Source: Chiloscyllium plagiosum (taxonomy: Eukaryota). Taken from it: a stretch of DNA of 64,000 bases. The number at the start of each line of letters is the position of its first letter. Position 1 is the stretch's first letter. A program made the translations under genes and the position numbers. The notes beneath the pieces were generated by a model that had not been told where the DNA came from, searched no databases, and saw nothing but the letters and a program-made list of their open reading frames with translations. The DNA lies in the NCBI RefSeq assembly GCF_004010195.1, contig NC_057758.1, forward strand, positions 2,875,340 to 2,939,339, given 5' to 3'. Positions 480 to 54,596 of this stretch are shown one piece after another.

Positions 480-1310
480 AGTGATTCGATGTATCTGTGG
501 GTTTCCGTGAGTTATCAGGAATCACATTGGACCCAGTCTCTATAAAATAATGAGAATTCTGGAACGTTTATAATAAGCAGGGAAGCCATTGCAGCCACTG
601 TGCATATACTGGCTCCAAAAAGGGAAGAAGTGAGGACTGCAGATGCTGGAGATCAGAGCTGAAGATGTGTTGCTGGAAAAGCGCAGCAGGTCAGGCAGCA
701 TCCAATGAACAGGAGAATCTACGATTCGGTTCTTGAAGAAGGGCTTATGCCCGAAACGTCGATTCTCCTGTTCCTTGGATGCTGCCAGACCTGCTGCGCC
801 TTTCCAACAACACATTTTCAGCTCCAAAAAGGGAAACCCCGCTTCTCCTAGTCTGCAGTCCTCTCTCTGCAATCCTTTCTATTCATCACTTCCAAACAAA
901 TATCTAGCTCTCTTTTTTGAAATCTGTGATGGAATTCGCCTCCACCACACACTCCAGTCCTGATAACTCTCCGAGTGATAACTCCCAGTCGGACAACATG
1001 AGGGGAGTACAGGAGCGCAGGGCCTTGGTGAGCGTTTTTCAATATGATCAGCAGGTGTTCTGGCAGGATGAAACCGTTTTTTTAAGAAGCACATTGCAAT
1101 TACTAACAAATCTTTGACTTAAGACCTTTCTCCTCATCTCATTCCGAGCTCTCTTGCGAAACATCTTGAAATTATCATCCCACTTACTGACCTACCAACA
1201 AATGGAAACGAAACATCCTTCATTACCCTTTCAAAATTGTCCACAATGTTGAGCATCTGAATGAAGTTACCTCTTCTTGGCGCCGAGGTGAGCAAACACA
1301 GTTTCTCTAA
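480..1310 (+). repeat. Block paralogous to ~57885-58390 (includes an old minus-strand CR1 3' fragment)
   Basis: Shared strings such as CAGGAATCACAT.GGACCCA.TCTCTA.AAAATAATGAG and AAGACCTTTCTCCTCATCTCATTCC, in the same order. Confidence 0.8.
627..824. mobile_element. Fold-back (palindromic) element derived from Penelope terminal repeats
   Basis: Inverted arms ~657-720 / ~760-824; hammerhead-like centre UUGAAGAAGGGCUUAUGCCCGAAACGUC; direct repeat GCTCCAAAAAGGGAA at 612-626 and 821-835. Confidence 0.8.
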
Positions 1311-3315: not shown

Positions 3316-4916
3316 ATTGAGGAAGGGCAATTATAATGCGATTAGCCAAAAGTTTGGAGGCATAGACTGGGTAAGCAAAATGCAGGGGATGTGGACATTC
3401 GAATTGTGGAGCTGATTTAAGGAACAGATATTGCGTGTCATTGTTCGGTATGGCCCTGACAGGCAGGGAGGAGTGATCAAAGAAGAGAACCGTGGTTTGC
3501 TGAACAAATTGTATCTCTTGTTCAGTGGAAGAGGGAGGCTTACGTGAAGTTGAGTCGAGATGGTTCAGATGAGGCGATGGAGAGTTAGAGATTCGCCAGG
3601 AAGAATTTAAACACAGAGATCAGAAAGCAAGGAGGGCATATGAGCAGTCTTTATCCGGAAGAAAGGGGTAGCAAAATGCGGGGATGCAGACAATGGAAAT
3701 GTGGAGTTGGTTTAAGGAAATGATATTGCGTGTCCTTGATAGGTATGTCCCTGTCAGGCAGAGAGGAAGCGATAAGATAAGGAAACCATGGTTTACTACA
3801 GAAATTGCACCTGTTGTTAAGTAGAACAAGGAGGCTTGTGTGTTGATGAGGCAAGGTGGTTCAGATGAGGCGATGGAGAGTTATAGATCAGCTAGGAAGG
3901 ATGTAAGGAGAGAGTTAAGAAAAGGAAAGAGAGAACACGAGCAGTCTTTAGCAAATAGAACACAGGAGAACCCTAAAACTTTCTATAGGTGAGGAATAAG
4001 AGGATGACTAGGGTAGGAATAGGGCCAGTGAAACACAGAAGTGGGAAGTTGAAGGTGGACCCTGTGGAGATGGGAGAGGTGCTAAACGAACATTTCTCAT
4101 AGGCTTTCACTCAGGAACAGTAGAATATTGTCGAGGTGAATAATGAGGCACGAGATATTAGACTAGAAAGGATCCAGGTTAGTTACAATAGGTGTTATCA
4201 ATTCTAAGAGGAGTGAAAGTAGACAAGTCCCCTGTGCCGGATGGGATTGATCCGAGGATTCTCTGGGAAGCTTGGGAGGAGATAACAGAGATTTTGGCTT
4301 TGATATTTGAGTCATCGTTGTCTGCAGGGTTAGTACCAGAAGACTGGATGATTGCAAATGTTGTGCCCTTGTTCAAGAAGGGCAATAGAGATGACTCAGG
4401 TAATTATAGACCAGCGAGCCTTACATCTGTTGTAGGAAAGGTGTTGGAAAAGATTATGAGAGATGAGGTTTATAATCATCTCGCAAGCAACAATTTGATT
4501 TCAGACAGTCAACATGGTTTCATCAAGGACAGGTCGTGTCCCATAAACATCACTGAGTTTTTTTTAAGAAGGTGACCAAGCATATAGAGGAGAGTAAGGC
4601 AGTTGACATGATATCCCTGGACTTCAGTAAACCCTTTGTTAAGGTTCTACATGGTAGGCTGTTGGAGAAAATGCAGAAGCATATGATTGAGGGTAATTTA
4701 GCGGTTTGGATTAGAAACTAGGTTTATGAAAGAAAGCAGCGAGTGGTAGTTGATGGAAAATATTCAACCTGGCGTCCGAATACAAGTGGTGTGGCACAAT
4801 GATCTGTTTTGGGACCATTACTGTTTATCATTTTTATAAATGACGCAGGCATAGGTGGATGGATTAGTAAATTTGTAGATGACACTAAAGTCGGTGGAGT
4901 AGTGGACAGTTTAGAA
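3316..4916 (+). mobile_element. CR1 LINE ORF2 (RT region), with a diverged ~295-bp internal duplication
   Basis: KSPVPDGIDPRIL...PEDWMIANVVPLFKKG...NYRPASLTSVVGKVLEKI...SQHGF; ends near FVDDTK. Confidence 0.92.
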
Positions 4917-5696
4917 GACTGTCGCTGGTTTGAAGTTCCCCATTGGCTGTTCGCACTGTTGTGACATCTAGAAATGGCAGTTCGTTGCTGTTTTCTTCCT
5001 CTTTAGAGAATTTTATGCAAGTAAGGGTATTATTGATGGTCGTGAAGACATCCTCTAACTTGTTTCGGTTAGTGATGGCAAAGATGTCATCCACGTAGCG
5101 GACCCAAAATTTCACGGTGGCCCACAAACACACCAAAAGACTAAAACAGCAGCTAATGAACTTGAATGACCCTATACAGACAACAAGCAAAACTAATGTC
5201 AATTACAAAGTACCGTGCAAGGACTGTAACATGGATTGGACAAACAGGTAGCAAGCTAGCCGCCAGGACACACGAACATCAACTAGCCACAAAACGACAT
5301 GAACCTTTCTGACTAGTATCCTTACATACAGATAAGGAAGGACACCACTTCGACTTGGTCAACAAATCCATCCGAACACAAGCCAAACAGAGACACGCAA
5401 GATAATCCCTAGAAGCATGGCATTTCAACCGGAACTGTATCAACACACACATCGAGTTGGACCCCATCTAACACTCCCTCAGAAAAAGAAAAGGAATTGA
5501 CTTCACCACAGGAAATGACATCACCAACGCAAAGAAACCCAAACAGATAAATAGGAAGCCGGAATCAGCAGCACGGCTTCGCGCGGAGGCCCACTGAAGA
5601 TGTTGCTTAGTAGTGTGAGGAAACATTTGGAACTGAACCCTGTAGCTCAGCGAGCAAACCTACACCCTGCAGCTCAGCGAGCAAACCTACACCCTG
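4917..5696. mobile_element. Penelope-like element with 5' inversion (RT minus, GIY-YIG and terminus plus)
   Basis: Minus 4917-5113 reads WVRYVDDIFAI...IKFSKEEE...LPFLDV. Plus 5117+ reads NVNYKVPCKDC...IGQTG...EHQLATKRHE. Degenerate hammerhead at 5591-5630. Confidence 0.88.
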
Positions 5697-5917
5697 TCGC
5701 TGTGCAGTTTGCACATTCTTGCTTGTCTGCGTTGTTTTACTATGGGTGCCCCAGTTTCCTGCCAGAATCTAAATTGTGACAGTCAGGTGGATTGGCCATG
5801 CCAAATTGCCCAAATTGTCGGGTGCATAAGTCAAACGGAAAGGTGTCTGGGTGGGTTACTCTTCGGAAGGTCATTTGGACTGTTGGGCCGAATGGTCTGT
5901 TTCTGCAATGTCGTGTC
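5697..5917 (+). mobile_element. 5'-truncated HE1/V-SINE-like SINE
   Basis: TGTGCAGTTTGCACATTCT central domain and a CR1-like 3' tail, as in 39334-39649. Confidence 0.75.
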
Positions 5918-5975
5918 TCTAATCTAATCTAATCTAATCTAATCTAATCTAATCTAATCTAATCTAATCTAATCT
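5918..5975 (+). repeat. (CTAAT)n microsatellite, expanded SINE tail
   Basis: About 11 perfect units directly after the SINE. Confidence 0.95.
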
Positions 5976-11700: not shown

Positions 11701-12329
11701 TCGTGTCATTGACCGATCCATCAGTCCGATACAGGCATAAATCATTGATGTTTGTTGTGATATGCAAAAGGAGCATTCAGATTCAGATCTGTTAGTAACT
11801 CTGTTCCGAAGATGCAGGGAATTGCAATGGAGAGTTCAGTTGAGAGGGAATATTTTGGATGGAGGCTCAGCGTGTCTCTGAGAGTGAGTGTGCTGCAGTC
11901 AGTGGAAACCTGGGATAGGCTCTTCACTGACTGGAGTTTTTGCATTCTCTCCAATCAATTTTGCATTCTCTCTAAAAGCCCTCTATGCTTGCAATAGTGT
12001 TATAGCAATAAATGCACACGATCCTCCAGCGTTGGCCTGACGAAAGACCAGAACATGAGAGGTCTGTATGTTGCTCATTTTCTGCTTCTCGGGTCCTCTC
12101 TGTCAGGAGTTAAGACACGGATTTGAATGTGTAATAAGATAGCGACACTGAATACTTGGCAGTGTCGTCCTGTTTTTGTCCACATGGCCGAGAAAGCAAT
12201 GTTTGATGGCTCATTGGTTTGACACCATCAAATGGAGTCTGAACTGCTCAGATGACAGATTTCTGCATTCAAAAAATCGAATGATTTCCATTGTTGCATA
12301 TTGACTTTTCTTATTAAAGTAGAGGCACA

Positions 12330-12525
12330 GAAAAGCTGCAGATGAGGGAGTCCAAGGTAGACGAGCAGGAGGCTGGAAAATGACCGCAAGCCAGGCAGTA
12401 TCAGGAAGTGCTGAGGACAATCTTTCGAGTGTAACCCTTCATCATACAACCGAAGCGTTGACTTTTCGACCTCTTGATGCTGCCTGGCTTGTTGTGTTCT
12501 TCCAGGCTCCTGCTTGTCTACCTTT
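12330..12525. mobile_element. Older Penelope-terminus fold-back element
   Basis: Inverted arms AAGGTAGACGAGCAGGAGGCTGGAA / TTCCAGGCTCCTGCTTGTCTACCTT. Confidence 0.7.
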
Positions 12526-16830: not shown

Positions 16831-17134
16831 TACTGAAATTAATCCTTCATTGTTAACATCACTCTGTATCACAAACCAGCCTCTCGGCCAACTGAGCTAC
16901 TCAGATGGAAGTGGGTATTGCAGATGCTGGAGATCAGAGTCAAGATTGTGTTTTAACAAGAAATGACTAGGGAAACATCAACTGCAAGTTCCACACATTT
17001 CTCTAAATTGTGTCTGCTAAGTCCTGACATTTCTGGGGAATCACAGCAAACCAGGGACAACACATACCCTCACCTTTACTTTCCAAAGCAGAATTTGAGC
17101 AATGATTGTGAATTAATTTGAGACAAGGTTAGAA

Positions 17135-17297
17135 AACTGCTGAAAAAGCACTGCAGATCAGGCATCATCCGAGGAGCAGGAAAATCGATGTTTCCGGCCA
17201 AAGGCCAGAATCCTGATGCACGGCTTTTGCCCGAAACGTCGATTATCCTGCTCCTCGGATGCTGCCTAGTCTTCTGTGGTTTTGTAGCACCACACTA
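17135..17297. mobile_element. Penelope-terminus fold-back element with hammerhead-like centre
   Basis: GGCATCATCCGAGGAGCAGGAAAATCGA / TCGATTATCCTGCTCCTCGGATGCTGCC; centre AAUC-CUGAUGC-A-CGGCUUUUGCCC-GAAACGUC-GAUU (one core mutation). Confidence 0.75.
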
Positions 17298-17606
17298 ATA
17301 TCAACTGAGCCACTCAACCCCAACATTGACATAAAGATGCATGATTGAAATACTCTTCGCACATGGTGGTTTCAAGGTATCAGGCAAGGTTGAGCCAAAG
17401 GAAAATAATTGAGAAACAGAAAGGCAGAGATCATGCAACACCTTACTAGCTGCGAGGCTCCATTCCGTCTCTCAGAATTCAACAGAGCTTGCACTGTCCC
17501 ATAGTAAAAACTGGAAAAGATCCAGCATCCCACTGTGTGCTGGCATAATCTATAAACAGGGTGCAATCAATTGAGTGATCAACTGTCAGTCTCCTGGACT
17601 GCAGAC

Positions 17607-20129: not shown

Positions 20130-23100
20130 ATATCCCTGACTCCACCACGTGTGGTGTTTCCAACTGCAGTTCATGTTCGACTGGATGACTGCTCGACAGC
20201 TGCAGATGGATACGCTTTGTAGCATCTGAAGTGTTGAATGGTCGTGGAAAGCACATTTAGCAAATTGGTCACACAACGCATTAGACTTGCTGAGAAGAAA
20301 GTGAATGGGTGACCAAAAGGTGGGGAAAGAACAGGTAGGTAGTGCAGATGTCCACTATGGTCATCTAACTCCAAAACAGGTATACTGTTTGGGATACTGT
20401 TGTGGGAGATAGCTCACCAGGGCAAGGCAGCAATAGCCAGATTCATGTCATCGTGGCTGGCTTTGATGTACAGAAGCGTGGGGAAAAGAATGCCAGGGCT
20501 GCTGTGATGCGTTTTCAATTGGAAGGGGAGAAGATAGGCGATTCTGTGGTCGAAAACGAGACAGCTGAATAGAACGTTGCCTCCAAAGTACATTGGTCAG
20601 TGATGTCTCAGGTAGGCTGTAGAACAATCTGAAAGGGGTGGGAGGGGGGAGGTGGTGAACAGCCAGTTGTCGTGGTGCATAGAAGCAACAGTGAAATAGG
20701 TTTTAAAAAAGGACGATGTCCTCTTCGCAGAATTTGTGGGGTTATGAGCCATGCAAAAATGTACTACGTTGGAGGTATTGATCCAACGTCAGGATTGTTG
20801 CCAGTGCCAGTGCTCATCAGCATAGAAATGAAAGAATAGGCAGGATGAATTTGTGGATTCGGAGATGATGCAGAAGGGAGGTGTTCTCATTTTAAGGACG
20901 TGGGAACCACTTCTGGGTTAGGTGGGCCGATTACAAATTGGATGATCAGCACCAGTGCACGACTGGAAGCAATGTCCTATGGTGTGCTTTGACTAACGCT
21001 GTTGGGGACGGTTTAAACTAACGTGGCAGAGGGATGAGAATCAAATGAGGAGGTTAGTGGAGGTAGTAACTAAAGTTTGTTAGGAGCAGGATAATGAAGT
21101 CAACGTGACAGAGGGCAAGACTAGCCAGGGCGGAGATGATTTCCCAAAAGGACAGGTGGTCTGAAGTAAACCTTTTTTAAAATGTTAGACGTGTAGTAGG
21201 TGAGGTGAACGTATGGCATGAATTAGTTCCCGTGATCTTGATGATATTGCTCGTACTGATACTTGTTTGATGGAAGATTTGCAACTAAAAATTCCAAGAC
21301 ATAGAAGTTTAGGGCGGGATGATGTGTGAGGTAAAATAGGTGGAGGATTTGCACGACTGGTCAGAGAGGATAATCACAATTCTGCTGAAGAAGAGTACTA
21401 TGGAAGACATAAGCAGTGAGTAAATATGGGCAGAGCTCAGGAATAGGAATTAGGAAGGGTGCGTTAACAATGTTTGGGCTGAATTACAGGCCTGTCGACA
21501 GTGAGTCTAATAAAGGTACAAATATATTAATAGATTATGGAAATGTGTCAGAACAACAGGCTGGTGGTGATAGAAGACTTTTCTTTTCGCAACATTGATT
21601 TAGATTCACTTAGTATTAGAGATCTAGTTGAAACAGAATTTCTGAGTAGCAGCCAGGAGCATACATAAATAGTCCAGGAGGGTATGTAAATCATTCAACT
21701 CGGAATGGGGCCATTCTCGACATGTTGTTAGAGAAAAAGGTGAATAGGTGGTCGCAGTTTCAGTCGGGCATGACTTTGGGAATAATGATCACAATTATAT
21801 AAGTTTTAGAATACTCATGGACAAAAACAAGAGTGGTCCTAAATAAGGGTGCTAAATCGGGGGAAGGCCAACTGTAGAAAAATATGGCAGGAGTTGTGGA
21901 ATGTGGATTTGGAGCACCTGTTTGAAAGTAAATCCACATTTGATATGTGGGAAGCTTTTAAAGGTAGATTATTAGAGCGCAGGACTGACATGCCCTGTGA
22001 AAATGAGGGACAGATAGCAGGTGAAATGGTCAGAATAGCTAAGAGGAAAATGGAAGCTTAAGTAAGATCTAGGCGACTGAAAACAAGCGAAGCTTGGAAA
22101 AATGTCTGGAAAGTAGGAGCAATCTGAAATGAGGCAATAAGAGGACTAAAAGGCGTCAAGAAATATATTTAGCGAACAGTGTTAAGGAAAACCCCAAAAC
22201 CTTTTATTGGTACATGAGGAGCAAGACTGATGCTCAAAACAAGGACAAAGGAGGTAAGTTTTGCGTGGAGTTAGAGAAAATGGGTGAGATTGTTAATGAG
22301 TACAGTGACTCATTAGGACACGACAGTGTTGAGGTTAAGGATAGATGTTGATTTCTCTAGATCAAGTTGGCCGAAGGAGACAGAAAGTGTTGGATATTCA
22401 GAAAGGCATTAAGATGGACAAGTTCCCAAGCCCAGATGGGATCTATATCACGATACCGATGGAAGCGAGAAGGAAATAGTTTCGGCATTAAGAAAAAAGT
22501 ATCTTCAGTATCGCTGATCACAGGTGAAGTGATGGACGACTGGAGAATTGCTAATGTTGCCCCCTTGTTTAAGAATGGTAGCAGCGAAGTTCCAAGTAAT
22601 TATTGACTGGTCAGCCTGATGTCAGTGGTAGCGAAGCTGTTGGAGAAGGAACTGAAGAATGGGATTCATTTACATTTGTAAGAAAATTCACTTATTAGTG
22701 ATCGGCAACATGCTTTTGTATAGGGAAAGATTATGTCTTATCAACTTCAATAGACGTATTTGAGGAAGTGACAAATTTCATAGATGTGGGAAGGACTGTA
22801 TTTGACATATACATGGTTTTCAGTGAGGCTTTTCATAATGTTCCACGTGGTAGGCTGATGGGAAAATGAAGTCCCTGGGGTCCACTGCCTGCGAGCCATA
22901 AGGATCGAGAACTGGCTGGGCAGCAGGAAACAGAGCGTAGTCACCGAAGGGAATTTCTCAAAATGGAGAACTGTGACCAGCAGTTTTCCACAGTGATCTG
23001 TGTTGGGGCAATTGTTTTGCATATATGATCTGGAGGAATGTGTCGATGGTCTGATTAACAAGTTAGCAGATAACATCAACATTTCTGGAGTCGTAGATAG

Positions 23101-23955
23101 TCGGGAAGACTATTAGAGAATGCATCAGAATATAGATTGATTGGAGATTTTGGCAGAGAAATGGCAGATGCAGTTCAATCTGGGAAATGTGAGGTTATGC
23201 ATTTTGTAACATCCAAGAGTGAATTATACAGCAAATGGAAATGCCCTGGGGAAAATTGATGTCCAGAGAAATCAGTATGTACAAGTCGATTGTTCTGTAA
23301 AGGTCGCAATGCAGGTCGATAGACAGGTTAAGAATATATAGAGCATGCTTTCCTTAATCGGACTGGATATTGAGTACAAGGTTTGGCAGGTTATGTTCCA
23401 GTTATCTGGAAATTTCGTTTGGCCAAAATTAGAACACTGAATGCAGTTCTGGTCGTCACATTACCGAAAAGATATGGATTCTTTGGAGAAAATGAAGTGG
23501 AGGTCGACCAGGATTTTGCCTGGTATGGAGGATGCGAGCTATGAAGAGAATTTGAAAATGTTGTTATTATTACATTAGAAAGAAGGATGTTGAGGAGTGA
23601 CCTGATTTAGATCTACAGAAATCACGAGAGGTAGTGGGAGGGTTGGGTATCAAGATGCGTTTTCCTAGAGTAATGATTACATGTTCAAGGTGACAGGAAA
23701 AGTTTAAGGGAGAAATACATGGAAATATCTTTATGCACAGGGTGATGGCTGCCTGGAACACTTTGTAAGAGGAGGTGGTAGAGGCGGGCATCATAGCATC
23801 ATTTAAGATATATCGAGACAGATATAAAAATGAGATGAAAGCAGAGCGATACATATCCTTGGTAAATAGGCACCAGTTTTAATAGAGAAGCTGGATGAGC
23901 GCAGGCTTGGACAGCTGAAGGCCCGTTTCCTGTGCTGTAATTCTCTTTGTTCTTT
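20130..23955 (+). mobile_element. Near full-length decayed CR1 LINE (ORF1 esterase-like, ORF2 APE-RT)
   Basis: ORF1 DRRFCGRKRDS and EQPVVVVH motifs; ORF2 DWRIANVAPLFK; (TTCTTTG)n tail at ~23941-23957. Confidence 0.88.
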
Positions 23956-24059
23956 GATATGTGGCCAGGATGGACGACTCGCACTAAATGGTCTGTTGCT
24001 GTGTTGTAAATCTCTATGATTCAATGATTCTAATCATTTTGCGGAGTGGAGAGATTTTT

Positions 24060-24810
24060 CTTTTCAGATGCACGAGTCCCAAGTAGTTCTTGTGTAAGCA
24101 CAGGTTATCATACAGGGGCTAATATGGTGCTGGCCTTTATGACAAGATGGAGTGAACTTAAGTGTGATTTTTCCATTATACAGGGTGCTGTAGTTTCCTC
24201 ATCTGTAATATCGTGTGCGTTTCTGGGCGCCTTATTGAAAGATGGATGTAAATTTGTTGGAATTTGGTGAAGAACAAAGATTCATGGTGAATAACCTGAA
24301 ATGAGCGGTTTGTTTGACGAGATAAGGTTGGAAAAATTGTGCTTGCTCCTTCTGGAGTTTTGGAGAGTGAAGCAGTGTGGGGGAGAGGGACGATTGATGC
24401 TGCAAGACATTGTACAGTCTTGTCAAAGCAAACATGTGGCGAGATATCTCCTGATGTGGGTCAATCTGGAATGAGAGGCGAACGGATTTACAGCTGGGGA
24501 GGATCGAGGTGGGGGATGGACCTTTCAGGTCGGAGATTAAAATTGTCTCTTTCACTCTCTGAGGACCATTATGTGTGACTGTGGCACTCTGTGCACTCGA
24601 AAGGTGCTGGAGGGGGTATATGGAAGATTTTTGAAGACGGTGGTGAACAGATTAATGTTGACAGAGAAATGGAAAGTTTTTGGAGGCGGACGGGGCAATG
24701 TGAAATTTCAAAGACAGCAGAATCACTCATGGACATTTTGAATGATGGAGTAGGGTCAAGGGAGCCGAATACCTTATGGTCTGCTCCTGACTGTTACCTC
24801 CTGTGATTGT
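24060..24810 (+). mobile_element. Old CR1 3' fragment
   Basis: Decayed CAFLGALLK (CVQFWSP-like) region; paralogous copy at 61960-62300. Confidence 0.65.
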
Positions 24811-25484
24811 AACTGAACGAAATCTTAATTAAACACATCCCGTGACCCTGTTTGCAGTTAATGTCTTAGCCGTCATGTCCATTTTTTCTGGAGCGGATGA
24901 CTTCTCACCTCGTTAATCTTAAACCTCTCCTGCGTATTCACAGCTTGCAATGTACTATGCCATGATGGTACAATGTGTCTAAGTTCCTCCAATGACGTGC
25001 TGCTAACAATGGTCACAATCTCTTCTTTATTTGGAACATCCACTCCTTCTCTTATTCCTGCAAGCACTTCAACCCTTACCTTCATCAATTATCTTTTCTC
25101 TACTGAATGTCTTGTAACTAGGAAGACGACACACCCCAGTCCTGCTCTAAGTGAAACCCCGACTTTGGAGCACCACAGCATTATTTTGTTTTCTACTGGG
25201 GACAGGTGGAGTGAAGATCTGCCACTGTATCTCGCCAACACTGATTTCCACTTACGTTGAACTCGCTTGCAGCACAATATGCTAACTTCCATGTTATTTC
25301 CTTTCCTACCCCTAATTACGAGTGTCTAATAACTTTCAGTTTCCTGAGGTGGGGTTACCAACAGTGAAATCATTCGATGCACCTTTTTGTTTCTCTCCGA
25401 ATTTTCACTATGGGACCACGTGTCTGACCAGTTGGTAAAAACACCTGCCCAGTGATAAACTAACATCAGACTGCAGTCTGCCAT

Positions 25485-26237
25485 ACAGTTATAGAGTCAT
25501 AGAGATATACAACATGGAAACAGATCATTCAGTCCAATCCGTCCGTACCGACCAGATATCCCAACCCAATCTCGTCCTACCTGCTAGTACCCAGCCCGTA
25601 TGCCTCCAAACCTTTATTATTCATATACACATTCAAATGTCTTTCAAAATTTGCAATTGTTCCAGTCTCCACCACTTACTCTGGCAGCTGATTCCATCTA
25701 CGTACCACCGTCTGTGTGAAAACTTTGCCCCTTAGGTCTCTTTTATATCTTTCCACTCTCGCCCTAAATCTATGCCTGGACTCCCTGACCCCAGGGAAAC
25801 GACTTAGTCTATTTATCGTTTCCATGCCACTCATAATTTTATGTACCTCTATAAGGTCACCCCTCAGCCTCCGACGGTCCAGGGAAAACAACCCCAGCCT
25901 GTTCAGCCTCTCCTTATAGCTGAAATCCTTCAAACTTGGCAACATCCTTGTAATTTATTTCTGAACACTTTCAAGTTACACAACATTTTTCCGATAGTGA
26001 GGAGACCAGAATTGCACGCAATACTCCAACAGTGGCCTAACCAATGACCTGTACAGCCGCAACATGACCTCCCAACTCCTGTACTCAATACTCTGACCGA
26101 TAAAGGAAAGTATACCAAACACCTTCTTCACTCTCCTCTCTGCCTGCGACTCCACTTTCAAGGAGATCTAAACCTGCACTCCAAGGTCTCTTTGTTCAGC
26201 AACACTCCCTCGGACCATACCATTAAGTGTATAAGTC
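25485..26237 (-). mobile_element. CR1 LINE 3' fragment (absent from duplication copy B)
   Basis: LYRSLVRPLLEYCVQFWSPHY, RLGLFSLDRRRLRGDLIEV, and an ATAGAGTC-type tail on the plus strand. Confidence 0.92.
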
Positions 26238-27043
26238 AGAAGTGGACCCACTGAAAAGTGTCTAGTTCATATTAGTCTCGTCATTTTTGATATTGTCTTT
26301 TCACTGTAAAGCACTCCATTTTGCTGTACTTTTCTGGCCTCTTTTTGTTTTCTTTACTATCCTTCCTTCAACTGTGAGACTCATCAATTCTCTCTGCTAC
26401 TTTCTGAAATATACGAAACAGATTCATAATTATCAAACCACGACAGATCCGTATCAGAGCATGGAGCATCATTATAAGGTGAAGGATCAAGTCATTTCGA
26501 TTATTACTGAGATTTTCTTTTCACCCAGTGATGTGTTTTGTGCTGCCAGAGACTGTAGTGGAGGCAATTACTCTCACAAAATTGTTAAGAATTATCTGAA
26601 CGTGCACGTATTGGGGCATAGCAGCCTCTGACTGCATGTTTTGTGCTAATTGGAAAAATGTGTTTGTATTAAAAAAATATGGTCCTATCCCTACCTTTGC
26701 ACTATTGCTGATACTATGCTTAGAGAACTGGACATGCATTGTTTATGACTGCCACTACCTTATTCAGAGGTTAACGTTTTGCATAACCTCCTCTCGTACA
26801 AATTAAGGGAAAAAGCTCAGAATTGCAAAATTGAAAGATTTTGCTGTTTGTGTGTTTAGTTTTTTTTTCTGTGAAGTCCTGTTTTCAGGATGTCTCAAAG
26901 GGAAATTTAATGTTTTGTGATTTTCTGAGGACAAGACGTGTTGCTCTGTGAGACATCAGCAGAAACTATTTGTTCAGAGACGAAAGTGATGTCAGTCTCC
27001 AGGGAATTCTTGTTGTATCACTGAACATATCCCCTCTTCTCCT

Positions 27044-27050
27044 CATAAAG
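27044..27050 (+). promoter_or_regulatory. Candidate TATA-like box (CATAAAG)
   Basis: 140 bp upstream of the ATG; retained at the same relative position in the duplicate (63550-63556). Confidence 0.3.
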
Positions 27051-27183
27051 CCGGCACTCCAAAGTGCCATCTCATGGTACCAAAGGGAGCCTTCACCTGT
27101 GTCTTGCAGAGGAATCGGCGTCAGTTAAAAAGAGGGAGAGGAGTCATCGAAATCCGAGAAGGACGCACTGGAATATTGCAGCA

Positions 27184-27364
27184 ATGGAACCGACCCTGGA
27201 GACAGGAGACTGGAATTTAACAACTATGAATAGAAGATTCCCTTCGCAAATCGCCTATTACATTAGAAATCAGCACTGGATGACAGTCTACTATCGAATA
27301 CGATATCTTCTTCTGCTGTTTCAGCACGTTTACTATCCATTCCTTGCTGCTATTGGTGTCTTGG
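27184..27364 (+). CDS. GPR139/GPR142-like class A GPCR, coding exon 1 (N-terminus and first half of TM1)
   Basis: ATG at 27184 in context GCAATGG. Encodes MEPTLETGDWNLTT...QHVYYPFLAAIGVL, with an NLT glycosylation site. Ends at a phase-1 donor G|GTAAGG at 27365 and joins exon 2 in frame (181+908 nt = 363 codons including stop). Confidence 0.85.
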
Positions 27365-27699
27365 GTAAGGTTTTCGATACAGTAAATATCGCTCATGATT
27401 TGGGGTGTGAGTGGTCTATCAAATGAAGAGAGATCGAACAGTTTAGAAGCATATTTTGCCATTTGTCGTCTCAGCTGACTGCGGGGCTCCTGTGTGATGC
27501 AGAGTGACATTAGCAACAGGGGTTCAGTTCCCATATCTCATTATGACACCCTATTCATGACCTCTCCCTTTGCAATTTAAGTCCTACAAAGACCAAGATG
27601 AGCTTCAATTCAGCGATCAAATCTCTTGTCCTGGGAAGTGACCATGTCCGGCTCAGCCATATCATCCACGCTGACATCTTGAGCAAAGATCCTCCAGAC

Positions 27700-28385: not shown

Positions 28386-28696
28386 TTAGATTAGATTACT
28401 TTCAGTGTGGAAACAGGCCCTTCGGTCCAACAAGTCCACACCGTCCCGCCGAAGCGCAACCCACCCATACCTCTACATTTACCCCTTACCAACACTAGGG
28501 GCAATTTAACATGGCCAATTCACCTGACCTGCACATCTTTGGACCGTGGGAGGAAGCCGGAGCACCCGGAAGAAACCCACACAGACACGGGGAGAACGTG
28601 AAAACTCCACACAGTCAGTCGCCTGAGGCGGGAATTGAACCCGGGTCTCTGACGCCGTGGGGCAGCAGTGCTAACCACTGTGCCACCGTGCCGCCC
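28386..28696 (-). mobile_element. Full-length HE1/V-SINE-like SINE
   Basis: Minus strand GGGCGGCACGGTGGCACAGTGGTTAGC, B box GGTTCAATTCC, tail TAATCTAATCT. Confidence 0.92.
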
Positions 28697-29369
28697 ACAA
28701 ATTCTCAACGTTACTCATCATTTGCCCTCCTTTTCACCCCCACTGCTCCAACATCATTGGCATCTTCAGAAACTCGATTCCCTGACTTAGCCATCATTCT
28801 TTTGCCAAAATGTATGCCATCCCAAACCCTGCCTGTTATACCAGTAAACTCCTGTGAAATCAGCGATTGAGCCTTGAGTCTGTCACTGAACTCTGATCAA
28901 CAGGATGCATTTGTCTCCTAGGTTCAGAAGAAGGGTCACTGGACACAAATTGCTGATCTGCTTTGCATTCACATGTGCTGACACACCTGCAAATCATAGT
29001 TTCTCCAGCAATTTTTGTTTTCATGACTGATTACCTTCTCATATCCCAACAAACAACACCAAATAAACCGGAAGAACTGTAGATTTTTAGAAATCAGATA
29101 CCTGAACAGGAATTGCTGGAACAACATAACCGTCTGGCAGCATCAGTGAACAGAAATCAGACTTAAAGTTTCAGATGCAGTGACACTTCTTCCGAGCCAC
29201 AGCTCCCAAATTTGGAGAAAGAACCATAATATCTCTTTTTCTCTACAATATTTACCAGGGACCGAGTCATCATTGTATCGATGGTTTAATACCCAATTGT
29301 CACTGCTTCAAAATTCTTCAGTCAAACTGAAAGCTTCAGTTGGAGTCTGTTTTCCAGTTATCTATCAAA

Positions 29370-29969: not shown

Positions 29970-31975
29970 TCAGCAGCGGCGGGAGCAGTGACAGCAAGGG
30001 TCGGGGCTGCTAGGAAGGTAAATTTCCCTCTGAAAGGACTGACGTCGAGAGTAAGTGGCCTCCATTTTGCAGCAGCAGGAACGGTGAGAGCGAGGAGCTG
30101 AGTGGGAGCAGTTGAATTTCTCTCTGGGGAGGTGGGTGAACTGGTATGTCGTGTTGGAGAAGAAACAAAAGAATAGGCAGGATGAATGAGTGACTTGACA
30201 GATGTTGCGGGAAAGAGGTTTTCAAACTGTGGGGATTTTGGGACCGGTTCTGGGGGAGATAGGACTATTATCACTTAGACGGTCTACACCTGGGCAGATC
30301 TGGAACCAATGTCTGAGAATGTACTTTTGTGAACGATGTTGGGGACGGATTTAACAACTGTGGCAGGTGTGTGGGAACCAAATAAGGAAGATAGAGGACA
30401 GTAAGTAGATAGTAACTCATTCTGTAAGGAATGAGATCATGAAGTCAGCGTGACGAAGGGGAAAGAGTAGGAGGGAGCAGATGATGAACGCAAAAGGACA
30501 GGTGGTCTGAGGTGCATTTGTTTTAATGTAAGAAATATAGTAGTTAAGACAGGCGATTTTAGGGCTTGGGTTAGTACCTGGGAGTATGATGTTTTTGCTA
30601 TTCCTGGGACTTGGTTGATGGAAGATATTTGATTACTCTTGGTCATGTTGGCAGAAACAGGGAGGAAAGTGTTGAGTGTTCTCAAACGCATTAAGATGAA
30701 CAGGTCCTTTGTTTCAGATGAGATCTATCGCAGGATACTGAGGAAAGGGAGAGACGCAGTAGCTGGGGTCTCAACAGATATCGTTGCAGCATTCTTGAAC
30801 ACGAGTGAGGTCCCAGAGGACAAGAAAATTGCTAAAGGTGCCCTTTTATTTAATCAGGGCAGTAAGGAAAGTCGACAGGGATAATTCGGGGCATACTATC
30901 TATATGGGCAGTGAATTGGCTGGGCATATGTGGACAGAGAGTAGTAGTGGAAGGGTGTCACCCAAAATGCGGAACTGTGGTGTTCCACTGGGATACATTT
31001 TGGGACCATCGTTGTTTGCGATATACATAAATGATCTGGAGGAATGCATAAATGGTCTGTTTAGCAAGTTTGCAGATGACAGTAAGATTGGTGGAACAGC
31101 AGATAATGAAGGGGACTGTCAGACATTGCAGCGGTATATGGATAGGTTGGAAAGTTGGGCGGAGAAATGGCAGACGGACTTCAATCCGGGCAAATGCAAA
31201 TTGAAACACTTTGGAAGATCAAATCCAAGAGCGAACTGTACTGTAAATGGAAAGCCCTGGGGAAAACCGATGTCCAGAGAGATCCATATGTTCAGGTACC
31301 CTCAAGGTGGCAAAACAGGTCGACAGAGTGATCAGTAAATCATATTGCATGCTTTCCTTTATTGGTCACGGTATTGAGTACAAGAGTTGGCAAGTCATCT
31401 TACAGTTGTATAGGAACTTGATTCGGCCGCATTTGGAATAGTGAGTATTGGTCGCCATGTTATCAAAAGGATTGGATGCTTTGGAAAGGGTGCAGAGGAG
31501 GTACACCGAGTTTTTTTTCTGATATGGAGGAAGGGAGCAATGAATAAATGTTGAGTGGGTTGGGAGTAATTTCATTTTCATTTGGGGTGTGAAATTGATC
31601 GAGGTATTCCAAATCATGAGACGTATCCACGTGGTGGATAGTAGGAAGCTTTCTTCCCAGTTGGCAGATTCAATTACTGGGCATCACGAGTTCAAGGTGA
31701 GAGGGGAAACTTTTAAGGGAGATAGCGTGGAATATTATTTACACAGAGGGTGGTGAGTGCCTGGAACACGTTGCCAGCGGAGGTGGTAGAGACAGGCACA
31801 ATAGAGTAATTTAAGATGTAGCTAGGCAGATATACAAATGGTCAGGTAGCAGAGGAATATAGATGTGAAGAAAATAGGGGACAGATTTAAATAGAATATC
31901 TGAAATGGTGCAGGCTTGGAGGGCGGAAGGACCTGCCCCAGTGCATTTTTTTTTTGTTCTTTGTTCTTTGTTATT
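29970..31975 (+). mobile_element. Internally deleted CR1 LINE
   Basis: ORF1-end and APE-start pieces; GVPLGYILGPSLFAIYINDL...KFADDSKIGG; (TTCTTTG)n tail. Confidence 0.88.
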
Positions 31976-33637
31976 CTTGTGCAGCCATTGCATTTATAAA
32001 GCTCGATCAGATCAGTTTTGGTGTAAACACTGTAGCCAGCCAAAAGCGCGTACAATGAAAAAATCCACTTTTGATTGCATTCAGTATGTCCAAAAGGTCA
32101 ATCAGGACCTCCTCAAACATGTATCCTGGTGTGCACTTTCCCTGATGTTTTCTCTTCTTCAAAGTACACTTAGAGGCAGGAGGCTTCCCCATTGAGGCAT
32201 AACACTCTCAGTGCATGCCACAGGCTCGTCGCAACATCAGCAGAGATGAAACAGTGCCAGCCGAATCCTTTATGCAAAACGGGAAAGGGGACAACAGACC
32301 CAGTTTCTGAAGAAGGGTGATTGGACCCTAAATACTATCTCTGTTCCAAACTCCTCAGATGCAGTCAGACCTGCTGAAATTTTCCAGTCATTTTTGCTTT
32401 GGATTCAGACTTCCAGCAGCTCGTTGTTGTTATTTTTACTGTCCTAATTATTCACCTGGACAAATGGAGGAAAGGAGTGGGAAAACACAAGAATAGAAGG
32501 AATGGGTGGTGAGAGATATTCATTGATAAGGTAATTGTTCAATTTCAAGGCTACGCATGTGTCTTTTGGAGATTCTAACAGTCAGAGGCGAAGTATAAAG
32601 GCTCCAAATTTGGACTTGAAAGCGTGAACTTTGAAGTGATCTTCGCTCATTCGATCATCGAGCTCAAATCAAGGAACTAAATCTTCATTAAAGGAGACGT
32701 ACAAGAGTAGGATCATGTAAATCTAAAAGACTAACTGAAGGTTTAATGAAGAGATCCAATCCAGGATTTATTTCACAAGCAGCACGAATGCATGCGAGTG
32801 ACAGATCTGAGTCATTCCCAAAGAAAAGCGTGGGGTTTCGGAACTGCTGATTCGCCAATATTCAGTTGAAAACGATGGCGGGCAATGGAAGTAGCATCCG
32901 AAAGTCTAGTCGTGCCGCATATCCCCATCTTATGCAGTCCTGCACAGGGAGTCAGAAGCAATCTTAAGCATTCCTGAGCTAATTCTGTCAGACGTGCCTC
33001 ATATCTGTTCGGTCCTCACCTGCATCCAGTCCACATTTGCAAGTCCAAAATCCAGCTTTTGGAATAATGATACTGGCTCAAAGAAATGGCTGCACCGTTA
33101 GTGACGCTGCTTCGGTCCAGATAAATTCCTGAACCAATCTAATCTCATCCCGTCAGGCTTCATTCGTTGTCAGCTAAGTGTTGGCACATTGCTTTCACTG
33201 CAATGTTCACTGAGGTCCAGCGAGTGATCTTCTCGGGCCATTGACACAGAGGACCATGAGGACAAACCTTGGAGAAGCTCAGCAGGTCTGGCAGCATCTG
33301 TGTAGATAGAGGAAGAGAGAGAGGGAATCAGAGGTCACGTTTCATTTCAGCACTATGCCGAAACTTGGACTGTCACCATATTTATTCCCGTTCCTGGTGT
33401 TTCTGGTCATCAGGAACATTCTTCCCATGTTTACCCTGCTGAGTTCAGTTTCGAGTACAGTATCAGTATTCTTCTGGACAGCATTTTTCGCGGTAGTAAG
33501 AGGGTGAAATTTTTAAGCCCAGTGTGATTTATGTACTAATAACTCTGGTCCCAAAGGTACTCTATGCAAGGGATTCAAAGGTACACAACTTTGAATGAAG
33601 CCATCCATCCCATCTCAAGTAGCTGCCTCTATATTCT

Positions 33638-33851
33638 GAGCTGAAAATGTGTTGCTGGAAAAGCGCAGCAGGTCAGGCAGCATCCAAGGAACAGGAGAAT
33701 CGACGTTTTGGGCATAAGCCCTTCTTCAGGAAAGAAGGGCTTATGCCCGAAACGTCGATTCTCCTATTCTTTGGATGCTGCCTGACCTGCTGCGCTTTTC
33801 CAGCAACACATTTTCAGCTCTGATCTCCAACATCTGCAGCCCTCACTTTCT
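33638..33851. mobile_element. Young Penelope-terminus fold-back element in the GPCR intron
   Basis: 89-bp arms 33638-33726 / 33732-33820 with ~3 differences; direct repeat CTCTATATTCTGAGC at 33627-33641 and 33852-33866. Confidence 0.88.
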
Positions 33852-33945
33852 CTCTATATTCTGAGCGTCTGCTCCTCTGTGTGCTGTGAAACGTAATGTG
33901 CACTATTCAACTGATGGATAATTTGCAGGTATTATTTTTTTGCAG

Positions 33946-34853
33946 TCAACGGACTGGCCATTGCAATCCTCTCTCGGGCGAAGTGTGGTCTATCAAAATG
34001 TATCAACCGGTATCTGGTGTACATGTCAGTGGCGGATCTGCTGGTCAACATCCTTGACCTGACACTGAAGCATATTCCAATTGTATATAATACAAAATTT
34101 CTGTTTATGAAGTCGATCCCTGCGTGCAACATCCATGCAATTCTAGTCCATGCAGCCACAGACTGTTCTGTCTGGTTCACTGTTGCTTTCACCTTTGATC
34201 GATTTGTGGCTATCTGTTGTCAGAAACTGAAATGTAAATATTGCACCGAGAAAATTGCATCTGTAATTTTGGGAATAGTGACAATACTGAGCTGTTTAAA
34301 GAATATTTGTTGGTATTTTATGCTAACAAGTCAGTATCGGCTAAAGAACCTCCCTTGGTTCTGTCATGAAAAATCAGGTATTGGACAATCTCATTTCTGG
34401 GGAACATTCGAAATCATTCATCATCTTCTAACCCCATGTTTGGCAATTCTTTTGACTGTACTATTCAATGCATTTTGTGTCAGACGTATCATACTGGCCA
34501 ACAGAGCCCGCAGGAGACTCAACACTCACAACAGCGGGAAAAATGCCACAGACCCAAAAATGGAGAGTCAAAGAAAGTCCATAATCTTGTTGTTTCTCAT
34601 TTCAGCCAATTTAGTACTGTCATGGGCAGCTTTTATGCTCCATTCAATATGGAAACGGGTGTGGCGATTGGGACTGATGGCAATCTATCTCCATTATTTT
34701 GTGGCAGAAATTGGATACATCTGCCAGCTCACCAGTCACTGTACAAATATTTGTATTTATGCCGTGGCATTGAGCAAATTCAGGGATCAGTTGAAGAATG
34801 TGCTCAAATATCCAATTTCACTCTCATTAAATTTGCTTAAAAATAAAATGTAA
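33946..34853 (+). CDS. GPR139/GPR142-like class A GPCR, coding exon 2 (end of TM1 to C-terminus)
   Basis: Acceptor TTTTTTTGCAG ends at 33945. Open frame VNGLAIAILSRAKCGLSKCINRYLVYMSVADLL...TDCSVWFTVAFTFDRFVAICC...SHCTNICIYAVALSKFRDQL to TAA at 34851-34853. Shows TM1 Asn, TM2 Asp, DRF motif and NxxIY in TM7. Family call is from motif recall. Confidence 0.92.
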
Positions 34854-34855
34854 TC

Positions 34856-34861
34856 AATAAA
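34856..34861 (+). promoter_or_regulatory. Candidate polyadenylation signal AATAAA
   Basis: Immediately after the GPCR stop codon. The context is AT-rich, so it could be chance. Confidence 0.35.
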
Positions 34862-35307
34862 ATAATGAAGTTGAGGATTGAATTATACTCTCAGTAGCAA
34901 CAAGTATATGTAGATTTCTATTAATCACAAAATGGCTTTTCAATTTAAAATAACACACAATATGTCAACATATTACAGTTGATTGGACTTTTATTGTAAT
35001 TAAGAACCATTTCCCAGGAAATATCATTGGATTAAGCTGCTATAAATCATGTCACCTTATTATATGTGATTGGTCTTCTTTTGTAAATAAGGCTGTACTA
35101 TCTCTTAAAAAACATATACATAATGTGTAATTTTCGAATGTAATTGCGCCATTTCTCGAGGGAAGCTTCTAACCTCCGTATTGCTGGACAAATCCGTGCC
35201 TGTATGCCTTAATTTATTAAACTGGTGACCTTGCTTCAAACAGACTGTGCTTCTAGTAATTCTTTTGACCGGTCTCGAACACCTTTGGCGGGGTTTAAAT
35301 CTTCATT

Positions 35308-35325
35308 TGGTGCCGTGACGCTTGA
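35308..35325 (+). promoter_or_regulatory. Primer-binding site complementary to tRNA-His
   Basis: TGGTGCCGTGAC matches the first 12 nt of the canonical His PBS TGGTGCCGTGACTCGGAT and lies 2 nt after the LTR-terminal CA. Confidence 0.7.
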
Positions 35326-36389
35326 TTAAGCATGGACAGATTGCAGACAATGGTTTAAGAACCTTTAGTCCTTCACTGTTGAGAATTGAGGAATGCAGCC
35401 GGCCAGACATGAGTGTTGTATATACGTTTGTTTATGTTTCTCATTCAATTTGTGTCTGACCTGATACCTCTCTGTCTATTTTCTAGTCCAGCTCCCAAGG
35501 ATCGGTCTTAGCAAGGGGATGGATAAGGGAACACTATATATAAAATAGGGAGGGGGGAGAAGTGATTAACTAAATTTGGGGCTTCTTTTTGTACTTATGG
35601 ACAGTGGTTTCCTAAAAATTGAGGAACTCTGAGGGGAGTCTTCAACTCTCATTTCTCGAGTTTCGTTAATTTCTGAAGTAAAAAGAAATCTCCGATTTTT
35701 GCATCCTCGAAGATTTTCGGTGCCTGGTGGCTTAACATTTTAATACAGACAGTTAACATTTACGGAGGTAGGTAGCCCCAATGTTTTTGATGATTACGGA
35801 GGCAGGTGGCCTCGATATTTTAATACAGGCGGTTGATCATGGTTTTATGGTATACTGACTAATATTGACATGCTTAAAGTAGGTAGAAAGGAGGTGTGAA
35901 ACCTTCTCAGAATTAAGAAAACCTGATTTGGTTGGATTGGCGTTGTCTAAATTAATACCTAAATTGTTCCGTGAAAGAAAGAAGTGTCATGATATATTAA
36001 AACAAAACTGTCAGAGTTTTAGATTGTCGGGAATGTTCTGCAGAAACATTAGTCTTGTTTCTTGTTTTCAGGTTGTTGATTAATGTTAGTTTTATGTCAA
36101 GTTTATTTCTGTCATAAGCTTGGCTTGTCTTGCTTTGCTGCTTTTTGTGCTTTTCTTTCTGTTCATTTTGGAGTTTACTGTTTATGAAATGTGGAGGGTA
36201 TTTGATGCCACAAAAGCTGGCTGGGAACAAAAAGTGCTGTTCGAAAAGCTGATACAATTATTGCTACTTAGCTACAAGTTGTTAGTGTGGGTACTCAAAA
36301 GGGTCCTAGTGTCTGGGCAGAAAGGTCTTATAAAAGAATCTTTTTAACTAGTAATAGAGAATTTGCTTGTCCCATGGTTATGATAGATG

Positions 36390-36600
36390 AAAGTTGAAAC
36401 TTTATTGCTGGAACAGCACAGCAGGTCAGGCAGCATCCAGGGAACAGGAGATTCGACGTTTCGGGCACAGGCCCTTCTTCAGGAATGAGCAGAGAGTGTT
36501 CAGCAGGAGAAGATAAAAGGTAGGGAGGAGGGACTTGGAGGAGGGGCGTTGGAAATGTGATAGGTGGAAAGAGGTCAAGGTGAGGGTGATAGGTCGGAGT
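36390..36600 (-). mobile_element. Penelope-like 3' terminal fragment
   Basis: Same terminal sequence as the fold-back arms, with AATAAA on the minus strand and a hammerhead motif. Confidence 0.8.
36451..36486 (-). ncRNA. Minimal type I hammerhead ribozyme motif
   Basis: AUUC-CUGAAGA-A-GGGC(CUGU)GCCC-GAAAC-GUC-GAAU: perfect stems I and II, complete core, GUC cleavage triplet. Confidence 0.75.
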
Positions 36601-36604
36601 AGTT

Positions 36605-37117
36605 AGCATTGTTGCCTCCTAAATTAGGCTCCTAATAACTGAAAAAGCTGCAAGTCCACAAGCTGTCAGGAAAATTACTTATTGCTTTTCATCTGCCCCA
36701 ATGTCATTTACCCAGAACAAAAAATACATTCTTTCCACCTATTGGGCCCAGTCTTTGATGGCAGGATCAAACAGGTCAAGCTTCCCAAATAATAGAATGA
36801 CGCCAGAAATGCTTACCTCAACTCAAAGCAGACTGTGTTGAGCATGTTTCTTCAGGTATGTGCATTACTCTTGTCGCCACTGAAATAACTCTACGGAGGC
36901 CAGCATCCTGCCAACATGTCACCCTTTATTAACACGTGCAAAGTCCTCGACACCAGTCCAGTTTCCTCAGAACCAGTTCACAGAGTGTCAGATTGTCTGA
37001 ACACTCCTTTTTTGTGTGTGTCAGCCAGGGCTCCCTGATTGGACCAGATTAACAGCCCCAGTCAGGGAATTTGTATTCTATGCAGTCCACCCATCTGACC
37101 TCATTACAATCACCACA
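36605..37117 (-). mobile_element. Truncated Gypsy element: 5' LTR (36881-37117), PBS and gag start
   Basis: LTR TGTGGTG...ATTTCA with AATAAA, then G-TGGCGAC, then LFGKLDLFDPAIKDWAQ*VERMYF...FLTACG...FSVIRSL. Confidence 0.75.
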
Positions 37118-39322: not shown

Positions 39323-39333
39323 AAAACTCTAGT

Positions 39334-39649
39334 GGGCGGCACGGTGGCGCAGTGGTTAGCACTGCTGCTGCCTCACAGCGCCAGAGACCCGGGTTCAATT
39401 CCCGACTCAGGCGACTGACTGTGTGGAGTTTTCACATTCTCCCCGTGTCTGCGTGGGTTTCCTCCGGCTGCTCCGGTTTCCTCCCACAGTCACAAAAATG
39501 TGCGGGTCAGGTGAATTGGCCATGCTAAATTGCCTGTAGTGTTAGGTTAAAGGGGTAAATGTAGGGGTATGGGTGGGTTGCGCTTCGGTGGTTCGGTGTG
39601 GACTTGTTGGGCCGAAGGGCCTGTTTCCACACTGTAAGTAATCTAATCT
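39334..39649 (+). mobile_element. Full-length HE1/V-SINE-like SINE
   Basis: A box TGGCGCAGTGG, B box GGTTCAATTCC, central domain, CR1-like tail GGGCCTGTTTCCACACTGTA, then TAATCTAATCT. Confidence 0.92.
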
Positions 39650-42506: not shown

Positions 42507-42809
42507 GGACAGCACAGTGGCTCGCTGGTTAACACTGTTGCCTCACAGCACCAGGGTCCCAGATTCGATTCCAGCCTCGGGCGACTGTCTTTGTGGAGTT
42601 TGCTCATTCGCACCGTGTCTGCGTGGGTTTCCTCCCACAGTCCAAAGATGTGCAGGTCACATGAATTGGCCATGTTCAATTGCCCATAGTGCTAGGTACA
42701 TTAGAGAGAGGGAAATGGGTCTGAGTGGGTTACACTTTGGAGGGTCAGTGTGGACTGGTTGGCCAAAGGGCCTGTTTCCGCAGTGTAGGGAATGTATTCT
42801 ACTCTAATC
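42507..42809 (+). mobile_element. HE1/V-SINE-like SINE
   Basis: Diverged A and B boxes, central domain and tail, as in 39334-39649. Confidence 0.88.
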
Positions 42810-47475: not shown

Positions 47476-47768
47476 TAGATTAGATTTTTTCTCTACAGTG
47501 TGGAGACAGGACCTTCGGCCCAAACAGTCCACACAGACCCTCCGAAGAGTAACCCACCCAGATGCATTTCCCTCAGACTAATGCATCTATCACTATGGAC
47601 AATTTAGCGTGGCCAATCCAACTGACCTACATATCTTTGGACTGTGGGAGGAAACCCATGCAGTCACAGGGAGTATGTACAAACTCCACGCAGACAGTCG
47701 CCTGAGGCTAGAATCGAACCTGGGACCGGAAGGCAGCAGTGCAAACCACTGAGCCACTGTGCCACCCA
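47476..47768 (-). mobile_element. HE1/V-SINE-like SINE
   Basis: Minus strand GGTGGCACAGTGGCTCAGTGG, GGTTCGATTCT, and a CTAAT-type tail. Confidence 0.88.
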
Positions 47769-50586: not shown

Positions 50587-50658
50587 GAGGAGCTGAAGAG
50601 TCTCCCCTGTTGGCTGTTTCGTAAAAGACAGACACAAACGTCATTCTCCCGGGTTCAG

Positions 50659-54408: not shown

Positions 54409-54596
54409 AACGCTTCACAGTGTGGCCTCAACAATGTCTCTTACAACTGTAACATAACTTCCCAACATCTATACTTAATGCCCCGAGCGTCATGATTGGC
54501 CTACCTGTGACTCCACTTTAAGAACATGAACTCCTAGGTCCTTCTATTCCACTGCACTCCTTAAGGCCCTACCAATCACCATGAAACGCCAAGGAC

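Follow-up and report, generated by a model that had tools for sequence, protein, structure and literature searches.

Five short palindromes in the genome of Chiloscyllium plagiosum, probably built from inverted pairs of Penelope-type 3' ends

The five palindromes found along a stretch of 64,000 nucleotides of Chiloscyllium plagiosum DNA (hereafter, the window) are, judging from their sequence, probably pairs of 5'-truncated 3' ends of Penelope-like elements (PLEs) that were joined head to head and contain no ORF. Each of them likely corresponds to a single event of PLE retrotransposition in its shortest form, with target-primed reverse transcription taking place from the two ends of the target. 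The anatomy of the arms, the direct repeats that flank them and the lack of any common centre among the copies are the main evidence for this reading, as detailed below.

Results

Palindromes and PLE termini in the window

The window is repeat-rich, vertebrate-type DNA with a GC content of 40-46%, in which LINE reverse-transcriptase remnants and one reading frame for a seven-transmembrane (7TM) receptor were recognised. A survey of inverted repeats of at least 30 nt with arms no more than 400 nt apart returned seven cases, five of which were the palindromes of a preliminary description of this DNA, named here after their positions as copies 627, 12330, 17135, 33638 and 54597. The five pairs of arms were re-found, one of 92 nt with 96% complementarity and others of 74 nt (91%), 75 nt (79%), 80 nt (74%) and 51 nt (78%), and all five folded far better than dinucleotide-shuffled sequences (z of -25.9, -13.8, -13.2, -9.2 and -8.2; no equally good shuffles among 200 or 100), which confirms them as real structures at these places. 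Another inverted repeat, between 46500-46557 and 46872-46929 (58 nt, 95% complementary, 314 nt apart), was unrelated to the PLE terminus; its two halves resemble the termini of a small TIR element.

With a profile made from 12 pieces of the window, 19 matches were obtained, 18 of them to terminus pieces and a marginal one (E 0.82), while the reversed window gave none. Eleven of these terminus pieces build the five palindromes, and the remaining seven are single-arm pieces. Rfam searches with the palindromes gave only sub-threshold matches to miRNA hairpins, the hammerhead family being absent from the matches, and no tRNA-type head was found. In addition, an exact-motif scan of metagenome, viral and prokaryote collections returned 6, 0 and 3 loci, respectively, all of them chance matches of 23-28 nt without further similarity. 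Pfam and protein searches with the ORFs of the window, including a remnant at 56100-56490, showed no PLE match, and the search with this remnant returned one unrelated-looking repetitive protein. The remnant itself (plus strand) is frameshifted and coding-like, is unlinked to the stubs, and contains a CxxC-type motif that we take to resemble the region before the GIY-YIG domain of PLEs.

Anatomy of the five copies

Arm positions are given on the ribozyme strand and counted from the predicted hammerhead cut after GUC, with cut positions set by inspection. In the five copies, the 3' ends of both arms lie on the outside and their truncated 5' ends abut at the centre, and a tail of about 32 nt (+65 to +96) is found on exactly one arm, so that tail-less arms end at about +58 to +64 and tailed arms at +93 to +97. 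The inner ends of the ten arms range from -10 to -34 from the predicted cut, and in each copy one arm starts at -26 to -34. Both arms carry the same -10 to +58 segment, with 65-90 nt of overlap between the arms of a copy and no ORF between them, making up units of about 200 bp. A complete arm and a cut arm had been reported for copies 627 and 33638; this difference is real and corresponds to the known PLE tail, although two copies were too few, as it is present in all five.

In copy 33638, the youngest one, the tail-less arm (33638-33732, minus strand, -31 to +64, core G12 changed to A) is followed by the tailed arm (33733-33852, plus strand, -24 to +96, with the tail at about 33821-33852). 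Its left direct repeat of 15 bp (33627-33641) overlaps the tail-less arm by 4 nt and is identical to the right one (33852-33866). In copy 627, the tailed arm (627-729, minus strand) represents the PLE 3' end from -10 to about +93 and precedes a tail-less arm (730-824, plus strand, -31 to +64) in which the minimal hammerhead at 733-760 (plus strand) has C3 changed to T. The left direct repeat of this copy (612-626, 15 bp) matches exactly the right one at 821-835, as a probable target-site duplication, and the first four bases of the latter are the last four of the tail-less arm.

Copy 54597 is flanked by exact 12-bp direct repeats (54576-54587 and 54798-54809) and consists of a tailed arm (54594-54708, minus strand) running from -21, or -24 if a 3-nt overlap at the centre is included, to about +94, and of a tail-less arm (54709-54798, plus strand, -31 to about +59) that keeps the core letters and has helices II and III damaged. 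Copy 17135, previously delimited as 17135-17297, proved to be a genuine palindrome of larger extent (16905-17303), as the tail and the outer end of its tailed arm (16905-16952, minus strand) are parted from the inner part of the arm (17138-17206, minus strand, -20 to +49) by a later insertion of 185 bp (16953-17137) that is single copy in the window. Its tail-less arm (17207-17303, plus strand) starts at -30 to -34, ends at about +58 to +63 and has core A9 changed, and its left direct repeat (16889-16903, 15 bp) shows one mismatch with 17302-17316. Finally, the copy at 12330-12525 was assigned to a second, distantly related family, with a decayed tailed arm (12322-12444, minus strand, -26 to about +97), a tail-less arm (12445-12524, plus strand, -15 to about +64) and a weak direct repeat (12305-12315/12522-12532) that overlaps the tail-less arm by 3 nt.

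The centre junctions differed in all five copies, with an overlap of 0-3 nt or with a little filler sequence. No junction is shared within any of the ten possible pairs of copies, not even between 627 and 33638, which have the same outer ends and an identity of 93-94% between their arms. Within each of these two copies, both arms belong to the same subfamily (90-96% identical), whereas private variants common to both arms of a copy were limited to one column in four pairs, and left and right arms do not cluster apart. The arm that reaches farther upstream is the tail-less one in four copies and the tailed one in the other (4:1, p = 0.375), a ratio that supports neither an order of events nor a rule by which the tail-less arm would be ahead in every copy. 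Long palindromes are unstable, and the centres could have been trimmed after insertion.

Single-arm copies

The solo copy at 36388-36600 (minus strand), from a sister subfamily, is non-palindromic and extends upstream to about -146, which indicates that the arms of the palindromes are truncations of a longer element. Single-arm ends from further PLE-like families were detected at 28923-29035 (plus strand) and 29072-29195 (minus strand), placed tail to tail with 36 bp between them, and at 32305-32421 (plus strand) and 33269-33302 (minus strand). The main family is also represented by very short stubs without a tail, at 52844-52903 (plus strand), apparently inside a LINE remnant and with a 6-bp repeat near the stub ends, and at 57819-57861 (plus strand). 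In three single-arm copies the first position appears to coincide with the front edge of the ribozyme; as the terminus profile begins there too, they lend weak support to a stop at this edge.

Hammerhead motif

A minimal type I hammerhead was found intact only once in the window, at 36455-36482 in the solo copy, with no match in 100 shuffles. As in the minimal hammerheads reported for metazoan PLEs (PMC4209133), the motif shows a CUGANGA core, an extra base before helix II, G10.1-C11.1 and a helix III without loop that consists of the palindromic ACGU, and no shark is named among the hosts in the accessible text of that work. The same source describes paired hammerhead motifs on opposite strands and 100-700 bp apart in Schistosoma; unlike these, the motifs of our palindromes abut or truncate each other and their helix II has 4 bp. 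Helix II is 88.9% paired across families, with one C-G/U-A swap and few independent events. No stable monomer fold was observed for the solo copy (z 0.26), which is neutral because a dimer-type ribozyme is expected to behave in this way.

Every arm of the palindromes has a core defect, a helix defect or part of the motif missing, and the core pattern is passed by at most one of the ten, in which the helices are damaged. The earlier proposal that the inversion centres lie at or beside the hammerhead could be refined, as the centres of the five copies fall inside the motif at a distance of 10-34 nt from the GUC cut, on its upstream side, and never at the cut itself. Furthermore, all ten arms contain sequence from both sides of the cut, and none of them begins at +1.

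Direct repeats and overlap with the tail-less end

Three of the copies have exact direct repeats (15, 15 and 12 bp), that of copy 17135 is of 15 bp with one mismatch, and copy 12330 has 8 bp exact, or 11 bp with one mismatch. When the same search was run at 1500 random positions of the window, exact repeats of at least 12 bp appeared at 3 of them, repeats of at least 11 bp with one mismatch at 8, and 8-bp exact repeats at 17. Direct repeats are consequently far above chance in four of the five copies, the fifth being decayed; the three pairs of 12-15 bp recognised in the preliminary description are exact, and those of 17135 and 12330 have to be added to them. In contrast, no convincing direct repeat was found around any of the seven single-arm fragments (6 bp exact at best).

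In agreement with the previous observation that one arm of 627 and 33638 is cut at the same base with a GAGC/GCTC overlap, the arm ending at +64 in these two copies shares GCTC with the direct repeat. Overlap between the direct repeat and the tail-less end amounts to 4, 4 and 3 nt in copies 627, 33638 and 12330 and to 1 nt in 54597, and is ambiguous in 17135 (0 nt by its own tailed arm and 5 nt by a family variant), whereas it is of 0-1 nt at the tailed ends, by inspection. The probability of finding at least 3 nt of overlap in three of five copies by chance is about 0.0015-0.002, a value that is post hoc, with n = 5 and one weak repeat among them. The overlapping bases match the end of each family, and there is no single fixed motif, so primer-template pairing is favoured over a preference of the nuclease. 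A search of the freely accessible literature yielded no account of such an overlap at the tail-less end.

Abundance and junctions in public contigs

Public contigs from the same species and from one relative were aligned to positions 33450-36700 of the window (3,251 bp) at 80% likeness. Between 67,447 and 94,729 contig records per run were obtained on this region, and the summed contig depth over the element, which is not a copy number, was four to five orders above that of the flanks; the family is very abundant in both species. No reads from a raw RNA run, of which about 6% was sampled, aligned to this region, an outcome that is uninformative on expression, editing or cleavage. Loose contig ends pile up at +96, the end of the tail (418 and 724 contigs).

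Fifteen of the 605 joints were listed, 13 of them involving the element and 12 being of the head-to-head type. Nine of the latter link an arm reaching -29 to -31, which is the limit of the reference arm in these contig joints, with another arm whose start lies between +38 and +54, two link +7/+8 to -23/-24, and one links +22 to +75. Joints with known filler add +45/-23, -30/+25, -12/+46 and +17/-23, and the starts of the second arm in head-to-head joints span +25 to +54. Neither a joint at +1 nor an empty-site joint was present among these 15 of 605. The joints listed imply that the centres vary across the genome and that often only one of the arms reaches the ribozyme, with the caveat that joints with short sides may, at 80% likeness, derive from other repeats. 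In addition, each of the three DNA runs contains diverged contigs whose first base is precisely 33852, where the right repeat of the youngest copy starts, which hints at an empty orthologous or paralogous site; a break of the assembly graph one base away would look similar.

Discussion

Relationship to known PLE insertions

The palindromes probably belong to the PLEs by their RNA motif, tail and layout, the protein searches having given no PLE match. On these three traits, the identification as two inverted Penelope-type termini made in the preliminary description was upheld. Insertions of EN+ PLEs with a head-to-head inverted and 5'-truncated copy, a tail of 30-40 bp at one end and a flanking target duplication have been described (PMC3846280, PMC8557442), and our palindromes share with these inverted-pLTR PLEs the head-to-head layout, the one-sided tail and the flanking repeats. 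They differ from them in that neither an ORF nor a second, direct pLTR lies between the arms, in their size of about 200 bp, in the length of the presumed duplications (11-15 bp here, and 8-10 bp in rotifer PLEs, PMC3846280), and in that, in all five copies, one of the two arms ends where the hammerhead begins, at its front edge. The phenomenon is, in consequence, mostly known: with its layout already published, the palindromes define no new kind of element and are less new than was supposed at the beginning, and it is the overlap at the tail-less end that we have not found in print. The same search of the freely accessible literature did not yield any account of shark PLE palindromes that lack an ORF, although Repbase, Dfam or subscription journals may contain both this and the overlap, and an expansion of PLEs in whale-shark introns has been reported (PMC5753468, PMC8969392, PMC6155905, 10.1101/443036).

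Non-LTR retrozymes, which have been described in cartilaginous fish (bioRxiv 10.64898/2026.07.22.740005), are likewise short, non-coding, PLE-derived and provided with a type I hammerhead. However, retrozyme units follow one another head to tail and each contains a whole ribozyme, whereas the copies described here are head-to-head pairs with broken ribozymes; this assignment was rejected on the orientation of the arms and on the core pattern, passed by one arm in ten at most.

A proposed mechanism with two priming ends

A close reference for our arms is the Poseidon PLE of the green anole, in which two reverse-transcription start sites flank the tail (nt 85-119, about +56 to +90 if counted from the cut at 29/30), at a distance from the ribozyme similar to that found here (+65 to +96) (PMC11167929). 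According to the same source, the enzyme, a predicted dimer, nicks and extends both strands, uses mainly uncleaved RNA in vitro, where ribozyme cleavage is unneeded, and initiates without homology to the cut DNA at both start sites on both strands. It follows from the latter that overlap is not required; unlike in the anole element, the tail-less end here often overlaps the target by 3-4 nt, and inverted insertions are not treated in the accessible text of that work.

In the two-ended mechanism that we favour, the GIY-YIG endonuclease would produce staggered nicks 11-15 bp apart, and both free 3' ends would prime reverse transcription on uncleaved element RNA, the templates being either a pair of RNAs bound to a dimeric enzyme or a single RNA copied two times. 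Initiation at the outer start site would yield the tailed arm, and initiation at the inner one, about 32 nt upstream, the tail-less arm, in this case probably aided by pairing of 3-4 nt of the target overhang. Both cDNAs would stop early, usually inside the folded hammerhead or at its front edge, and end-joining, with 0-3 nt of overlap, would connect their ends in head-to-head orientation, gap filling leaving the direct repeats. The products would be dead-on-arrival stubs and not a mobile family. A role of the ribozyme as a roadblock at its front edge is plausible, because the hammerhead core must unfold before the enzyme passes, as stated in a legend of PMC11167929; an RNA 5' end at this edge is the alternative.

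More tentatively, we propose that integration is asymmetric, with the tail site primed without homology, the inner site primed through 3-4 nt of pairing, and the hammerhead acting as roadblock or marking the 5' end of the RNA; it is also possible, with a similar degree of doubt, that such a step is not yet described in the literature. If true, this asymmetry would account at once for the inversion of the pLTR, for the presence of the tail on one side only and for the large number of stubs headed by the ribozyme. The origin of the inverted repeats of PLEs and of their one-sided tail is presented as an open question in PMC8557442 and is unvalidated in PMC11167929. Short and very abundant copies bounded by putative target-site duplications would provide the cleanest natural data on it, as priming junctions and internal joint are all found within 230 bp.

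A similar process, "dual priming", in which both target strands prime cDNA synthesis, was proposed without validation for LINE-1 (PMC2837659). As in L1 twin or dual priming, the palindromes are inverted insertions within a putative target duplication, with possible microhomology at the target junction and little of it at the internal junction. Twin priming of L1 generates two non-overlapping fragments with an internal deletion, unlike the arms described here, whose overlap of 65-90 nt fits dual priming or read-through on one RNA. The twin-priming-like insertion suggested in the preliminary description is therefore retained as two-ended target priming and not in its classical form, as the arms overlap almost fully.

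Alternative origins

The second arm could have the same PLE origin and be generated by fold-back self-priming, either of the new cDNA or of an antisense RNA; the latter was put forward for rotifers, and head-to-head PLE junctions have been explained in print by such priming on an antisense template (PMC3846280). The identity of 90-96% between the same-subfamily arms of 627 and 33638 is in line with it, and so is the longer tailed arm of copy 12330, the polarity expected for a cDNA fold-back. This origin is nevertheless unlikely, as in four of five copies it is the tail-less arm that runs farther upstream, which is impossible for a cDNA fold-back, and a cDNA without the tail offers no template for one. 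In addition, private variants are shared between arms at that one column in four pairs, and target priming at the tail-less outer end is in keeping with the overlap seen there with the target.

Our data argue more strongly against a non-autonomous hairpin retroelement that PLE enzymes would mobilise as a single transcribed unit and whose centre would later have been eroded by deletions. The stereotyped size of the units, their number (five in 64 kb), the identical outer ends of 627 and 33638 and the very high depth of the family in public contigs would be expected from it, but a master hairpin is very unlikely when no two centres match, and this part of the preliminary description was not supported. 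The left and right arms form no separate clusters, two families show the same layout, and single-arm and longer copies coexist in the window. Moreover, the transcript of the youngest copy folds as one long duplex in which the ribozyme is buried, and there is no arm with an undamaged ribozyme.

The other origin suggested there, insertion of short RNAs with a hammerhead-cleaved 5' end, can be given hardly any credit. It agrees with the location of the centres at the ribozyme in five of five copies and with the published proposal that the ribozyme processes PLE RNA (PMC4209133). However, linear ribozyme-cut RNA is excluded as the template because ten of ten arms span the cut, and neither an arm beginning at +1 nor a +1 joint among those listed was found; in the anole, RNA-seq reads ending at the cut were absent, and cleavage mutants still inserted (PMC11167929). 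A cleaved and then re-ligated circular RNA is the only version of cleavage that would still fit as template. Finally, a MITE derived from a DNA transposon and bearing long terminal inverted repeats is just as improbable in spite of the short, non-coding, palindromic and high-copy character of the units and of their direct-repeat flanks, as the ends are asymmetric, with a 32-nt tail on one side in place of fixed TIRs, the repeats vary from 11 to 15 bp (15, 15, 15, 12 and possibly 11 bp), one-armed and upstream-extended copies of the same sequence exist, and the hammerhead is of PLE type.

For annotation purposes, the palindromes mimic MITEs and microRNA hairpins, as illustrated by the weak Rfam miRNA matches, and the RNA of any copy that is transcribed would form a nearly perfect duplex of 75-95 bp.

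Other features of the window

The 7TM reading frame (33915-34853, plus strand, 312 codons) carries a 7TM domain of the rhodopsin family (Pfam 7tm_1, E 2.4e-12), starts about 50 bp after the youngest hairpin and has many diverged paralogues in public contigs. Direct similarity of 71-77% extends over several kilobases between 20593-27520 and 58463-63995, with further pieces at 30161-31963 and 49085-50587, and corresponds to LINE-like remnants or to an old local duplication. A dispersed repeat of about 300 bp, probably a SINE family, is present in at least six copies (5694-5934, 28386-28698, 39332-39649, 42506-42809, 47475-47768 and 54088-54407). In addition, positions 3369-3653 and 3666-3950 form an adjacent direct duplication of about 285 bp with 78% identity.
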